A DNA stretch of 64,000 nt from Candidatus Bathyarchaeota archaeon (GTDB taxonomy: Archaea; Thermoproteota; Bathyarchaeia; TCS64), in assembly GCA_043826455.1 (NCBI GenBank), contig JBDRQD010000048.1:32001-96000 (forward strand). The letters run 5' to 3'. The position numbers and the translations under genes were made by a program. The notes beneath the pieces are model-generated. The model did no database searches. It was not told where the DNA came from and worked only from the letters and a program-made list of their open reading frames with translations. Below, piece after piece: positions 6,616 through 44,842 of the stretch (the first letter of the stretch is position 1; each line of letters opens with the position of its first letter).

Positions 6616-6734
6616 AATATCGTACGTAATTACGCACGATATTCATCGTTTTTTGCAGAAACCATCCCCCTGAGGATGAGCTGATTTCTCTGTTGGCTTA
6701 ACAGGAATATTTTCGTATGTAATTACGTACGAAA
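6616..6734. repeat. Two related long palindromes (6616-6643 and 6711-6734)
   Basis: AATATCGTACGTAATTACGCACGATATT and TTTCGTATGTAATTACGTACGAAA, each with one mismatched pair; shared core CGTAYGTAATTACGYACG. Confidence 0.8.
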
Positions 6735-6792: not shown

Positions 6793-6885
6793 CCGCTAGA
6801 CAGGGAAGAATGAGACTATTGTGTACCTTAGCCTAACCAGGGTCTCACAAACGGCTGGCCTAGCGGGTTCTATGGAGGAAGCAAC
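6793..6885 (+). promoter_or_regulatory. Structured 5' leader of cysS containing a uORF
   Basis: TATA TTTATA 6765-6770; stems CCGCTAG(6793-99)/CTAGCGG(6860-66) and TGAGAC(6811-16)/GTCTCA(6842-47); SD GGAGG 6874-78. Confidence 0.6.
6810..6836 (+). CDS. Putative cysS leader peptide MRLLCTLA
   Basis: ATG AGA CTA TTG TGT ACC TTA GCC TAA, preceded by AGGGAAGA; contains a Cys codon. Confidence 0.45.
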   Translation: MRLLCTLA

Positions 6886-8331
6886 ATGAGAGAGCACCCC
6901 ATCCGGATCTATGACACCATGACCAGGCGGAAACGCCAGTTCAAGCCCCTCAACCCACCGGAGGTGACCATGTACGTCTGTGGCCCCACAGTCTACGGGG
7001 AACCCCACATAGGCAACCTGCGGACCTTCACCAGCGGCGACCTTATACGCCGGTGGCTGGAGTACCGGGGCTACAGGGTGAAGTACGTGATGAACATCAC
7101 GGATATCGAGGACAAGACCATCAGGGACAGCGGCAGGGCCGGGAAGACACTGAAGGAGTTCACCGACCACTACACCGGCGTATTCCTCCGCGGCCTCGAC
7201 ACCCTCAACAACAGGCGCGCCACGGCCCACCCCAGGGCCACAGTCTACGTGCCCCAGATGATAGAGTTCATCTCGGAGCTGATGGCGAGAGGCTTCGCCT
7301 ACGACGCCGAGGACGGCGTCTACTTCGACATCGACAAGTTCCCCGGCTACGGCCGCCTCAGCGGCGTGGACGTCACCAAGACTGAGCGCACCGAGCGGGT
7401 GGCCGACGACGAGTACGACAAGGAGGACGCCCAGGACTTTGCGCTCTGGAAGAAGGCCACCCCCGAGGAGCTGGAGCGGGGCATCTACTTCGAGTCACCC
7501 TGGGGCAGGGGCCGCCCCGGTTGGCACATAGAATGCAGCGTCATGACCCGGGAGCTCCTGGGCGACACCATAGACATCCACGCAGGCGGCGAGGACCTGA
7601 CCTTCCCCCACCACGAGAACGAGGTGGCCCAATCCGAGAGCCTGACCGGCAAGCAGTTCGTCAGGTTCTGGCTCCACATGAGGTTCCTCAGGGTCGGCGG
7701 CAGAAGGATGGGTAAGAGCCTGGGCAACTACGTGAGCTTCGACCAGATACTGGAGAAGCACAGCCCCGAGGCCCTCCGCTACTTCTACATAAGCACCCAG
7801 TACAGGAGGCCCCTAGACTTCACCTGGCAGGCCATGGAGGCAGCCGAGAACACGGTCCGGCGCCTGGGAAACACCCTAGACCTGATAGAGAACGCCATGA
7901 GGGGCCCCGACGACAACCTGGACTACGGTGAACGGGAGAACCTGCTCCTCAAGAAGGTGCATGCAGAGGAGGAGGCCTTCGGCGCCGCCATGGATGACGA
8001 CTTCGACACCCCTGTGGCTCTGGGCCACTTACACGCCGCGGCCGGCACCGTCAACGAGTACATCACGGGCCCCGCCAACAAGGGGGTGCTTCTGGAGGCC
8101 GCGGACGCCTATCGGAGGATGCTTAACGTCCTAGGCCTCTTCGAGGAGAAGAAAGGAGGCTCCGACGAGGCCACCGAGCAGCTCATGGGCATCATCCTCG
8201 ACATTCGGGATGAGCAGAGAAAGGCTAAGAACTACGCCTTCGCCGACATTATCAGGGACAGGCTTCAGGAGGCGGGGGTGACCATTCAGGACACCGCCGG
8301 CGGAGCCACCTGGAAGATAGCCAAGAGGTAG
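6886..8331 (+). CDS. cysS: Cysteine--tRNA ligase
   Basis: YVCGPTVY, HIGN, DFALWK, GRPGWHIECS, HAGGEDLTFPHHENE, RMGKS (KMSKS-like). Confidence 0.97.
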   Translation: MREHPIRIYDTMTRRKRQFKPLNPPEVTMYVCGPTVYGEPHIGNLRTFTSGDLIRRWLEYRGYRVKYVMNITDIEDKTIRDSGRAGKTLKEFTDHYTGVFLRGLDTLNNRRATAHPRATVYVPQMIEFISELMARGFAYDAEDGVYFDIDKFPGYGRLSGVDVTKTERTERVADDEYDKEDAQDFALWKKATPEELERGIYFESPWGRGRPGWHIECSVMTRELLGDTIDIHAGGEDLTFPHHENEVAQSESLTGKQFVRFWLHMRFLRVGGRRMGKSLGNYVSFDQILEKHSPEALRYFYISTQYRRPLDFTWQAMEAAENTVRRLGNTLDLIENAMRGPDDNLDYGERENLLLKKVHAEEEAFGAAMDDDFDTPVALGHLHAAAGTVNEYITGPANKGVLLEAADAYRRMLNVLGLFEEKKGGSDEATEQLMGIILDIRDEQRKAKNYAFADIIRDRLQEAGVTIQDTAGGATWKIAKR

Positions 8332-42384: not shown

Positions 42385-42951
42385 GTGGTGACAGCCTTGA
42401 AGCCCGGCACCATCCATAATAGGTTCACAGCCAGAGACGGCAGAGAAGTCATCCTCCGGACTCCAAAATGGGACGACCTAGACGACATGCTGGATTTCAT
42501 CAACAGCCTCGTCGAGGAGGAGGTCATGATCACCGTCAACCAGAAGCAGACCCGAGAATCAGAGATAGACTGGCTCGCACGCAAACTCACAAACCTGGAG
42601 AAGGACAAGATCATCAACGTGGTCGCCGAAGTGGAGGGAAGAATGGTGGGCAGCTGCGAGGTGGAGCCCAGACCCGGGAGGTTCAGCCACGTGGGCATCC
42701 TAGGCATCTCCGTGAAGCAGGGCTACAGGGAGGTGGGAATAGGCCAAGAACTCATGAAGGAAGTCGAGAGGCAAGCCGCCCAGATGGGCCTCGAGAGCAT
42801 CATACTGGAGGTGTTCGACACCAACGACCGAGCCGTACACGTCTACCAGAAGATGGGGTACACAAGAATCGGGGCCATCCCTGACGGCATAAAGTACAAG
42901 GGAGAGTACGTGGACAGCGTCTACATGGTCAAAAAACTTTGCTCATCATAG
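42385..42951 (+). CDS. GNAT acetyltransferase
   Basis: YREVGIG, NDRAVHVYQKMGY. Confidence 0.9.
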   Translation: MVTALKPGTIHNRFTARDGREVILRTPKWDDLDDMLDFINSLVEEEVMITVNQKQTRESEIDWLARKLTNLEKDKIINVVAEVEGRMVGSCEVEPRPGRFSHVGILGISVKQGYREVGIGQELMKEVERQAAQMGLESIILEVFDTNDRAVHVYQKMGYTRIGAIPDGIKYKGEYVDSVYMVKKLCSS

Positions 42952-42984
42952 TTATCAACGTGGAGTCCAATACATGGAACGCGG

Positions 42985-43527
42985 GTGAATACCGTGTTCA
43001 AGGCTTTCTCGTCTAAAGGCGGTGCAGATGTGATTCTCAGACCGTTGAAGTGGAGAGACCTAGACGATATATTGGAGCTCATCAACGAGCTCATCGAGGA
43101 GGAGGCCATGATCGGCGACGATAAACCCACGACAAGAGACCAGCAGGTGGACCGCCACGCGGACAGGATGAAAGCCATCGAAAGCGGCCGATCCGTTGTC
43201 ATCACCGCTGAGGCCGACGGCAAGGCGGTGGGGATGGCCAACGCCAGGAAAAGAGGGGGCCGTCTAAGCCACACGGCAGGACTCGGCGTCTTCGTCCGGA
43301 GAACGCATAGGAACCAAGGCATCGGCTCAGAGATGATGAGGGAGCTTGAAGCCCAGACCAAGAACATGGGCGTCGAGATACTCTACCTAGAAGTCTACTC
43401 CATAAGCCCGGCCGTCGAACTCTACAAGAGGCTAGGATACACTGAGTACGGCAAGCTACCGGGCGGCATCAAGTACCGCGGAGAGTACGTGGACATGATC
43501 TCCATGTACAAGCGGATAGCCGGGTAA
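42985..43527 (+). CDS. GNAT acetyltransferase (tandem paralog)
   Basis: HRNQGIG, LYKRLGY; shares the GIKY.GEYVD tail with the upstream gene. Confidence 0.9.
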   Translation: MNTVFKAFSSKGGADVILRPLKWRDLDDILELINELIEEEAMIGDDKPTTRDQQVDRHADRMKAIESGRSVVITAEADGKAVGMANARKRGGRLSHTAGLGVFVRRTHRNQGIGSEMMRELEAQTKNMGVEILYLEVYSISPAVELYKRLGYTEYGKLPGGIKYRGEYVDMISMYKRIAG

Positions 43528-43566
43528 CGGATACCTTTTTAAAAGCCTCAGCCACAATTCATACTC

Positions 43567-43705
43567 GGAGACAAGGGAATGAGTGTGCATCACTCGGACT
43601 GGACAGACTCCTCCTAGCGGAGGAAGCCATTTCTAAAAGCCACCCTAGTCCCGACCAAGCCAACGACCCAGCGGCAACGCTGCGCGTGAAAGGAGAAAAC
43701 AAGGG
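43567..43705 (+). promoter_or_regulatory. Structured 5' leader of trpS containing a uORF
   Basis: TATA TTTAAAAG 43538-45; hairpins 43580-96, 43610-23 and 43669-82 (GCAA loop); SD AGGAG 43691-95. Confidence 0.6.
43579..43617 (+). CDS. Putative trpS leader peptide MSVHHSDWTDSS
   Basis: ATG...TGG (codon 8)...TAG, preceded by GGAGACAAGGGA. Confidence 0.45.
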   Translation: MSVHHSDWTDSS

Positions 43706-44842
43706 ATGACGAACCAGAACAAACAGGAGATGGTGGTGACGCCCTGGGAGGTCAGCGGCGACATCGACTACGGAAAGCTCATGGAGCAGTTCGGAGTCCA
43801 GCCCATGACCACGGACCTGGCGGAGCGCATCGCTAAGCACGCCGGAGGCATGCACCTGCAGCTACGGCGAGGAGTATACATAAGTCACAGGGACCTAGAC
43901 TGGTGGCTGGGGGAGTACGAGAAAGGCAACAGGGTGGGCCTCTACACGGGCCGCGGACCCAGCGGCCACGTCCACCTGGGCCACCTGCTGCCCTGGTTCT
44001 TCTGCAAGTACCTCCAGGACGCCTTCGGCGCCGACCTGTACTTCCAGATGACGGACGACGAAAAGTTCCTCCACCGGGAGGACCTGACGCTGGAGGAGGC
44101 CATCCGGCTGACCTACGACAACTCCCTGGACGTCATAGCATGCGGCCTTGACCCGGAGAAGACGCACATAATAAGCGACTCGGACCACATCAGCCACATC
44201 TACAAGCTAGGCCTCAAGGTGGCCAAGAGGATCACCTTCAGCACAGTGAAGGCCGTGTTCGGGTTCAACAACAGCGACAACATCGGAGTCATCTGGCACC
44301 CCGCCCTCCAGGCCATGGTGAGCTTCCTCCAATCATACAGAGAAGGACAAAACATACCGTGCCTCATACCGGCGGCCATCGACCAGGACCCCTACTGGAG
44401 GATGACCAGGGACATAGCCGAGAAGATGGGCTACTACAAGCCGGCCCAGATCCACGCCAAGTTCCTGCCAGGCCTCGCCGAAGGGGGTAAGATGAGCGCC
44501 AGCCAGCCGGAGACCGCCATATTCACCACTGACCCGCCCAAGGTAGCGGCCAAGAAGGTGATGAGCGCCTTCACAGGCGGCAGGGACACCGTGGAGGAGC
44601 AGAGACGCCTCGGCGGAAGGCCGGAGAAATGCAACGTCTACGCCTACTACTATTTCCTCTTCGAGGACGACGACGAGAAGCTGGTAGACCGGGAGATGAT
44701 GTGCAAGAACGGTTCCATCCTCTGCGGCGAGTGCAAGAAGCAGCTTGCCGACAGGGTGAAGACCTTCCTCACGGACTTCCAGGCGAAGCGGGAGAAGGCC
44801 AAGGACGTGCTGGAGGACTTCCTCCTCAAACCCGTGAAATAG
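43706..44842 (+). CDS. trpS: Tryptophan--tRNA ligase (archaeal/eukaryotic type)
   Basis: VTPWEV, YTGRGPS, HLGH, TDDEKFL, AIDQDPY, KMSAS. Confidence 0.97.
   Translation: MTNQNKQEMVVTPWEVSGDIDYGKLMEQFGVQPMTTDLAERIAKHAGGMHLQLRRGVYISHRDLDWWLGEYEKGNRVGLYTGRGPSGHVHLGHLLPWFFCKYLQDAFGADLYFQMTDDEKFLHREDLTLEEAIRLTYDNSLDVIACGLDPEKTHIISDSDHISHIYKLGLKVAKRITFSTVKAVFGFNNSDNIGVIWHPALQAMVSFLQSYREGQNIPCLIPAAIDQDPYWRMTRDIAEKMGYYKPAQIHAKFLPGLAEGGKMSASQPETAIFTTDPPKVAAKKVMSAFTGGRDTVEEQRRLGGRPEKCNVYAYYYFLFEDDDEKLVDREMMCKNGSILCGECKKQLADRVKTFLTDFQAKREKAKDVLEDFLLKPVK

Follow-up and report, generated by a model that had tools for sequence, protein, structure and literature searches.

A conserved upstream frame and an open second frame precede trpS

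How archaea match the expression of their aminoacyl-tRNA synthetase and amino acid biosynthesis genes to the supply of amino acids is, to our knowledge, largely open. This question is raised by the leader of trpS (tryptophan--tRNA ligase) in a 64,000-nucleotide (nt) stretch of DNA from a Candidatus Bathyarchaeota archaeon (contig JBDRQD010000048.1, positions 32,001 to 96,000; hereafter the window, with its genome called G000), in which a short upstream open reading frame (uORF) carries a Trp codon. An original prediction, made from the letters of the window, had described this leader as a translational attenuator, and each position that it gave was verified: TTTAAAAG, the uORF MSVHHSDWTDSS*, its TGG, CTCCTCCT at 43608-15, GGAGG at 43619-23, CTAGTCCCGA at 43645-54, the GCAA hairpin, the AGGAG Shine-Dalgarno (SD) segment and the trpS ATG at 43706. 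The main feature of the leader, absent from that prediction, is an open -1 frame at 43599-43709 that ends in a TGA over the trpS ATG.

We compared 49 distinct trpS leaders gathered by a protein search and a pattern search, after dropping leaders with masked bases or identical spacers. In all 49, the -1 frame is stop-free from the Trp codon to 15 nt before the trpS start, over distances between Trp codon and trpS start of 63 to 209 nt: it contains 0 stops in 1638 codons, versus 120 in 1622 for frame 0 (including the uORF stop) and 120 in 1597 for the third frame. Among the leaders that are less than 60% identical, 22 of 22 are open, while dinucleotide shuffles predict 4.8. Relative to the estimated trpS start, the -1 stop falls between -10 and +17 nt; it stands at +1 (ATGA) in 20 leaders and at +8 in nine. 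The -1 peptide is not conserved past its first residues. Selection for one open frame that ends at a start codon is a signature of translation.

The uORF itself is conserved as well. Its core, GTG-YAT-CAN-NNG-GAC-TGG, was found in 29 of 29 trpS loci with upstream DNA (a protein search gave 30 loci, and L028 has no DNA upstream), so that an in-frame TGG in related leaders, a check proposed together with the original prediction, was found every time; the same 29 leaders support the earlier view of the uORF with its cognate codon as a ribosome-based Trp sensor, which is most likely what it is. With at most one mismatch allowed, 64 of the 70 other genomes of the family had the core pattern, as did five of eight further genomes of the order (4/6 and 1/1 in two other families); in the rest of the 401 genomes sampled from the class, its occurrence was only scattered. 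The start that is conserved family-wide is the in-frame GTG at 43585. The stop codon varies between TAG, TGA and TAA, the length after the Trp codon varies too, and one copy has an in-frame 3-nt insertion. Within the core, silent positions are fixed while amino-acid-changing positions vary (residues H/Q and S/L/P/R), which indicates a constraint on the RNA and the frame rather than on the peptide. An arrest-peptide uORF of the TnaC/AAP type, expected to keep its peptide and to free its silent sites, was rejected on the same pattern. Every uORF compared has a single Trp codon, not the run of cognate codons that marks a leader-peptide attenuator. The CUG at -1 and the G before GAC are invariant in Trp cassettes, and a purine follows the UGG in nearly all copies. 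The window has a C at 43588 where the cassette consensus has T (GTGCATCA versus GTGTATCA); T is also found at this position in related contigs from RNA libraries (4 of 14 runs), which reveal neither transcription nor a start site. In one of these contigs (X1), the leader is joined gap-free to the trpS coding start, with no indel listed at the Trp codon.

In trpB2, the second frame is the enzyme

A genome scan revealed a second Trp cassette in G000, at C46:111271, overlapping the start of a TrpB-like enzyme (trpB2; family assignment confirmed on the relative L117). Here, the coding frame is the -1 frame of the cassette itself. In 27 of 30 distinct trpB2 copies the enzyme frame is devoid of ATG, GTG and TTG, the CTG is invariant, and all 30 have an SD 7-9 nt upstream of the frame-0 GTG. 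In an outgroup comparison of 80 loci, one of them too short, a normal start was found for 74 of the 75 trpB2 genes that lack the cassette; it mostly coincides with the CTG position or precedes it by 3 nt.

The two Trp leaders appear to be related: the letters of the trpS hairpin (43609-43624) are those of the trpB2 N-terminal codons for ILLTED, so the trpS leader probably arose from a trpB2 5' end, and its -1 peptide begins LDRLLLAEE where TrpB2 begins LDRKILLTED. Behind further Trp cassettes, again after an open -1 frame, stand a trpD match, a chorismate-mutase-like gene, a TIGR04076 protein and a ferredoxin-like protein. The small TIGR04076-family protein stands behind a Trp cassette at six loci (L122, L126, L137, L144, L152 and L155) and the ferredoxin-like protein at one (L136); such placements hint that these genes take part in the metabolism of Trp or indole. 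At L155 (G282:C59), a decayed trpB2 5' piece of about 70 codons makes up the open -1 spacer before the TIGR04076 gene, like a snapshot of cassette capture. A record titled Patescibacteria (L311) holds a trpB2 that is 84% identical to that of this lineage, with a full cassette, and is probably mislabelled or a mixed bin.

Sister cassettes carry codons for other amino acids

The original prediction had likened the trpS leader to that of cysS, also in the window. The likeness held for the uORF, which has a counterpart with a Cys codon upstream of cysS, and failed for the ATGAG stem said to be shared, which is not conserved, the GTCTCA arm being missing in many cysS leaders; the opening motif, searched across the genome, gave no further family. 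The cysS cassette reads NTG-AGA-CTA-TTG-TGT with an invariant GUG at -1, and its -1 frame is open in 29 of 29 distinct leaders.

Two other families use the +1 frame. The first, ATG-GGG-WAT-YGY-TTT followed by a sensor codon, was found in 74 of 79 genomes of the order, with three matches in a reversed control. In valS leaders the +1 frame is open in 40 of 40 and the sensor codon is Val in 15 of 15 cassettes. At the ilvB-like genes, a Val cassette and one for Ile or Leu stand in tandem and share a +1 frame, which is open in 24 of 25 leaders; the sensor codon is Val, Ile or Leu in 32 of 32 cassettes. At a cimA/leuA-like gene (cimA below), the cassette sits in the same register at 30 of 30 loci, always with an Ile sensor codon, and its +1 frame is the enzyme; in 16 of these loci the enzyme frame lacks any NTG ahead of DTTLRD, and in the others one occurs at scattered positions. 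The second +1 family, GTG-NNN-GGT-GAC-NNN-AAA plus a sensor codon, occurs in 50 of the 79 genomes. In ileS leaders, its sensor codon is Ile in 29 of 30 and its +1 frame open in 30 of 30; in the thrB-thrC-lysC-asd operon, the 11 loci seen, chosen by an AAA-AC pattern, have a Thr sensor codon and a +1 frame that is ThrB. Where the second frame leads to a separate start codon, its stop lies at +1 of that start in 17/29 cysS, 29/40 valS and 15/30 ileS leaders and nearly always within about 17 nt of the estimated start in the others; an upstream frame that ends on or next to a start codon, as in translational coupling, is thus found for trpS, cysS, valS and ileS. The names valS, ileS, ilvB, cimA, thrB, thrC and asd come from Pfam family matches and a reading of translations, not from curated models.

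One leader (L233; G014:C323:14270) places an Ile cassette of the ileS/thrB type upstream of two ilvB cassettes, the second of them for Val, on a single shared open +1 frame with three inputs. De novo cassette scans of G000 gave 41 and 93 candidates, of which trpB2, ilvB, ileS and thrB were taken further. By inspection, no cassette was seen in G000 before its Ser, Pro, Thr, Gly, His, Leu, Met, Asp, Asn, Phe, Ala, Arg, Lys and Tyr synthetase genes (named from Pfam families and N-termini); ilvD, argH and a second cimA/leuA paralogue looked normal by eye, and no hisG was found in this genome.

A model in which starved ribosomes change frame

What is observed, then, is a conserved uORF led by an SD, a single cognate codon that matches the target, a selected open second frame, and an overlap of stop and start or a fusion. 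From these features we infer uORF translation, stalling at a hungry codon, a shift and reinitiation, as follows. Ribosomes would start on the short frame-0 uORF, as the conservation of SD, start and stop suggests. With ample Trp-tRNA, UGG would be read, translation would stop a few codons later and trpS would not be reached. With scarce Trp-tRNA, the ribosome would wait with UGG in its A site and the P-site tRNA may slip back by one base, re-pairing from G_GAC to GGA (or, in one genus, from G_GGC to GGG); a hairpin 6-9 nt downstream of the Trp codon would help this slip. The shifted ribosome would traverse the stop-free -1 frame, unwinding the leader stems, terminate on the stop that overlaps the trpS start and reinitiate there, as expected from archaeal termination-reinitiation. 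At trpB2, where the -1 frame is the enzyme, the shift would yield the protein directly. The same design would serve Cys (cysS) by -1 shifts and, by +1 shifts at UUU_R, AUU_C or AAA_A, Val (valS, ilvB), Ile (cimA, ileS, ilvB), Leu (some ilvB) and Thr (the thrB operon).

That starvation triggers entry into the second frame, by whatever route, we regard as very probable. Programmed frameshifting at the hungry codon by tRNA slippage, followed by translational coupling or direct fusion, is a narrower claim that the sequence patterns make reasonably probable, and on balance we lean to the wider view that an order of Bathyarchaeia runs an amino acid regulon (Trp, Cys, Val, Ile, Leu and Thr) through portable hungry-codon cassettes that shift the frame of starved ribosomes. 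As in prfB, a short zero-frame ORF overlaps the functional one (30 trpB2 copies, 30 cimA loci and 11 thrB loci), and the functional frame lacks a start of its own at trpB2 (27 of 30 copies, leaving aside the invariant CTG) and cimA (16 of 30 loci); trpS, with its own ATG, is excluded from this comparison. Re-pairing in the P site would be good for AAA_A, fair for UUU_R and weak for G_GAC and A_UUG.

Several observations weigh against this model. The tRNA would re-pair poorly in both -1 families (GAC to GGA for Trp, UUG to AUU for Cys). According to passages of a 2016 review (PMC5009743), slow A sites play a larger part in +1 shifts than in -1 shifts. In both -1 families the sensor codon shares bases with a start-like one (CUG in Trp cassettes, GUG in Cys cassettes), the CUG of trpB2 sits where outgroups have ATG (offset 0 or -3), and CTG is also used as a uORF start in cysS leaders. 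In the +1 families, a GTG in the +1 frame lies inside the ileS and thrB motif; the 30 ileS leaders include one TAA and two CAA at the P-site codon, one GTT start and one Thr codon; one ilvB leader is closed; and valS of two genomes of another family (f4) has no cassette. With a mean unpaired value of 0.56, the region around the trpS start is not strongly sequestered, so that a block on direct trpS initiation is not evident, and the invariant GUGUAUCA letters have no explanation in a frameshift model. Moreover, because the genomes are kin, the shuffle figures for open frames overstate significance.

Considering the slippery P-site codons of the +1 families and the frequent lack of an alternative start in cimA, a true frameshift fits best there. 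For Trp and Cys, weak re-pairing and a CUG or GUG overlapping the sensor codon leave stall-induced reinitiation as a serious rival. A ribosome stalled on the hungry UGG or UGU, each one base from UGA, would then undergo termination or rescue, and its small subunit would reinitiate on the overlapping CUG or GUG. Trigger and outcome would be those of the slippage model, with no slip involved, and the step would apply to the Trp and Cys cassettes alone. The invariance of these codons at -1, their AUGA-like overlap geometry, the position of CUG at the ancestral trpB2 start and the ATGA coupling known in archaea (PMC6728339, in the part of that article consulted) would all suit such a step, which, if true for Trp and Cys, would be a new recoding step of pseudo-termination at a hungry codon plus reinitiation. 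We nevertheless consider it unlikely: no ATG, GTG or TTG replaces the CUG, the weakest NUG, among the copies listed (in part selected with a C-favouring pattern), a -1 slip would predict the unchanging G before GAC, and the 16 of 30 cimA loci without an NTG in the enzyme frame mean that this sister family needs a true shift. For the Trp cassette too, we favour a -1 slip, to which the invariant G, the use of the weakest NUG and the spacing of the hairpin point.

RNA structure and other possible controls of the leader

An RNA element that acts without the uORF was also considered. Initiation could occur directly at the CUG, gated by a T-box-like element that binds uncharged tRNA or a protein, with the uORF incidental. 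A core that is invariant at the nucleotide level and the purine after UGG would agree with this, and an in-frame CTG start is one option put forward for the haloarchaeal leuA2 gene (PMC8305020, from the part available). However, an Rfam scan of the window at the gathering threshold returned two tRNAs only, in agreement with the earlier remark that no canonical T-box is present; the SD is spaced for the frame-0 GTG in all 30 trpB2 copies, frame-0 stops are kept with three different stop codons in use, and the +1 families have slippery P-site codons. Duplexes of the cassette motifs with the tRNAs found, a set without the true tRNA-Trp and tRNA-Cys, had no cognate specificity. No 16S 3' end was found in G000, nor was a credible tRNA-Trp gene or the true tRNA-Cys recovered from it, several ARAGORN calls being spurious long-intron matches. 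Gated CUG initiation seems improbable.

The attenuation first proposed for this leader has a ribosome on UGG covering CUCCUCCU and thereby freeing the trpS SD. It draws on the conserved uORF with its cognate codon and on CTCCTCCT, which is complementary to AGGAG and lies inside the ribosome footprint. The folds tell otherwise. A consensus fold of the Trp leaders has just two small hairpins, GAGUG/CACUC and UCCUCC/GGAGGA, and the 40 nt after UGG fold below the shuffled mean in 84 of 88 Trp copies (mean -9.8 versus -5.7 kcal/mol). The local pairing of CTCCTCCT with GGAGG, one of the two partners suggested for it, is the one predicted, with at least four expected pairs in 39 of 49 leaders; its pairing with the trpS SD region was predicted in 1 of 49, and masking the UGG footprint left SD accessibility in the window leader unchanged, so that the proposed release of the SD found no support. 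For the anti-SD pairing, the fraction of paired cells depends on the alignment register (56.7% in one register, 79.2% in the best slid one), without covariation. Distant copies retain the hairpin with other letters, and in several (such as L116, L122, L152 and L180) the anti-SD letters are lost while the hairpin is kept. Moreover, the letters probably derive from trpB2 codons, attenuation leaves the open -1 frame unexplained, and at trpB2, which the same cassette overlaps, no downstream SD exists that could be freed. We therefore regard attenuation of this kind as very improbable.

Another pairing of the original prediction, GGACTGG with CTAGTCC, can form (86.8% of cells paired), but no change on both sides of the helix was seen, and at least four expected pairs were found in 12 of 49 leaders versus 36 of 49 for the competing 5' stem, a long-range stem that closes over the uORF. 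Covariation within the genus was not above shuffles (86-94 of 500 reach the observed value), because the sequences hardly vary; the 3' hairpin of the Trp cassettes has little of it.

Very improbable, too, is transcription attenuation coupled to the uORF, or a constitutive frameshift at a set ratio without sensing. Archaeal terminators need not be hairpins, and the leader of about 140 nt has stems and, in the genus, a short U-run after the hairpin; selection for one open frame ending at a start codon is nevertheless a translational signature, and the codon used follows the target pathway for all six amino acids. Finally, that the trpS leader is a mere vestige, a decayed trpB2 5' piece whose open frame is a leftover, as the resemblance of LDRLLLAEE to LDRKILLTED could suggest, is hardly credible, since spacers that differ in length and sequence are stop-free and end at the start and since the cysS, valS and ileS leaders do likewise with unrelated sequences; the likely shared origin with trpB2 is compatible with function.

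Comparison with known regulatory systems

Bacterial leader-peptide attenuators such as trpL, pheL and thrL combine runs of cognate codons with a terminator/antiterminator, and T-box riboswitches control synthetase and biosynthesis genes through one specifier codon per amino acid. The cassettes share with attenuators a cognate-codon uORF before amino acid genes and the ribosome as sensor; they differ in that one codon, fixed in its place, is used and that a second frame is under selection. From T-boxes they differ in that the codon lies in an SD-led ORF, with neither an Rfam T-box match nor a stem I or antiterminator seen.

Closer parallels are frameshift systems. Hungry-codon shifting and sensor frameshifts after short zero-frame ORFs have been described, with frameshifting in pheL treated as incidental (PMC5009743, in part). 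In prfB, the gene of bacterial release factor 2, a +1 autoregulatory frameshift uses a short zero-frame ORF and slow A-site decoding, and its product relieves the shortage (same source). The cassettes resemble it in the short ORF, a presumed slow A site, a product that would relieve the shortage and an SD-like element upstream (in the +1 families, GGGGU and GGUGA), whereas in prfB the sensor is a stop codon with its release factor and the shift is always +1 and always a fusion, here a sense codon with aminoacyl-tRNA. In ermC, a ketolide-induced frameshift within the leader ORF switches on the gene behind it (PMC5009743) and likewise sends ribosomes through a spacer; there, however, the trigger is an antibiotic and the output the unfolding of an SD-sequestering structure, while here the new frame ends on a start codon or is the gene. 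We propose that the cassettes work like the frameshift control of prfB or ermC and, by the features compared, not as attenuators, T-boxes or arrest peptides.

Among archaea, a -1 frameshift in Sulfolobus fucA1 was described in 2021 as the sole reported case (PMC8211752, in its available part); it is an internal heptamer slip in one catabolic gene, with no amino acid sensing. Coupling at ATGA gene overlaps has been described in Haloferax (PMC6728339, in part). The nearest printed precedent is a speculation on haloarchaeal leuA2 (HVO_1510), a gene that lacks a usable start and has a conserved CTG in frame and an ATG out of frame, for which Pfeiffer and Dyall-Smith (2021) speculated on slippage and on translation only when leucine is missing (PMC8305020). 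Both cases concern archaeal amino acid biosynthesis genes without a usable start and with an in-frame CTG; the leuA2 proposal, in the part of the article consulted, is for one gene and names no cognate codon or shift site, unlike the multi-gene set described here, with synthetases, both shift directions and coupling via an open spacer frame. A literature search with most subscription journals and bioRxiv supplements outside its coverage found no published description of this cassette system.

If the model is true, it would describe a productive use of starvation frameshifting, for which no functional product was known according to the same 2016 review (PMC5009743, as far as its available text goes), and would give archaea an equivalent of attenuators and T-boxes; the sister switches for five further amino acids suggest an archaeal way to sense amino acid shortage, and tandem ilvB cassettes on a shared +1 frame would act as an OR gate integrating several amino acids. 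With 20-40 nt, a self-named ligand and many natural variants, the cassettes are directly testable in Haloferax, Thermococcus or Sulfolobus reporters and offer small amino acid biosensors. In this lineage, trpB2, cimA and probably thrB are likely to be annotated with wrong starts.

Features of the two leaders and their surroundings

The elements of the trpS and cysS leaders are collected in Table 1. The product of trpS matches NF008927 at 508 bits (cut-off 478) and is the only trpS protein match in G000. The TATA-like box of its leader recurs in most genus relatives as the same T5-6/A4 stretch at equal distance.

Table 1. Positions of leader elements and genes in the window
Feature	Position	Strand	Remark
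cysS uORF MRLLCTLA*, Cys codon TGT at 6822-6824	6810..6836	+	start ATG, TTG or CTG among relatives
Open -1 frame of the cysS leader, GTG to TGA overlapping cysS ATG	6821..6889	+	
cysS, cysteine--tRNA ligase	6886..8331	+	
TATA-like box, putative trpS promoter	43536..43545	+	TTTAAAAG at 43538-45
SD-like segment of the Trp uORF; also 5' arm of a long-range stem with 43643-43654	43567..43578	+	minimum free energy fold
Frame-0 Trp uORF MSVHHSDWTDSS*	43579..43617	+	conservation of SD, start and stop
Sensor core GTG-YAT-CAN-NNG-GAC-TGG; proposed shift site G_GAC_UGG; Trp codon 43600-43602	43585..43602	+	
Open -1 frame, 36 codons, CTG to TGA overlapping trpS ATG (ATGA)	43599..43709	+	
Hairpin 6 nt 3' of the Trp codon, positioned like a -1 frameshift stimulator	43609..43624	+	
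3' arm of the long-range stem; weaker alternative partner GGACTGG	43643..43654	+	
GCAA-loop hairpin before the trpS SD	43669..43682	+	similar CAGC/GCTG arms in many relatives
trpS SD AGGAG, probably for reinitiation	43691..43695	+	
trpS, tryptophan--tRNA ligase, 378 aa	43706..44842	+	NF008927

Palindromic TACGTAATTACG-type repeats lie upstream of the cysS promoter (window 6617-6732; five genome matches to a 12-nt core), and a similar element precedes valS. Elsewhere in G000, a second metG-like N-terminal piece stands at a contig end (G000:C59:27-263) and an A+C-rich, strand-skewed stretch lies beside a tRNA gene (G000:C39:50900-51500). Upstream of trpS are two tandem GNAT acetyltransferase genes (42385-43527), a neighbour kept in many genus relatives, and directly downstream of it, in many relatives, follows a second trpS-like gene that is about 50% identical (for example G029:C188:2208-3260 and G036:C1:288225-289325).
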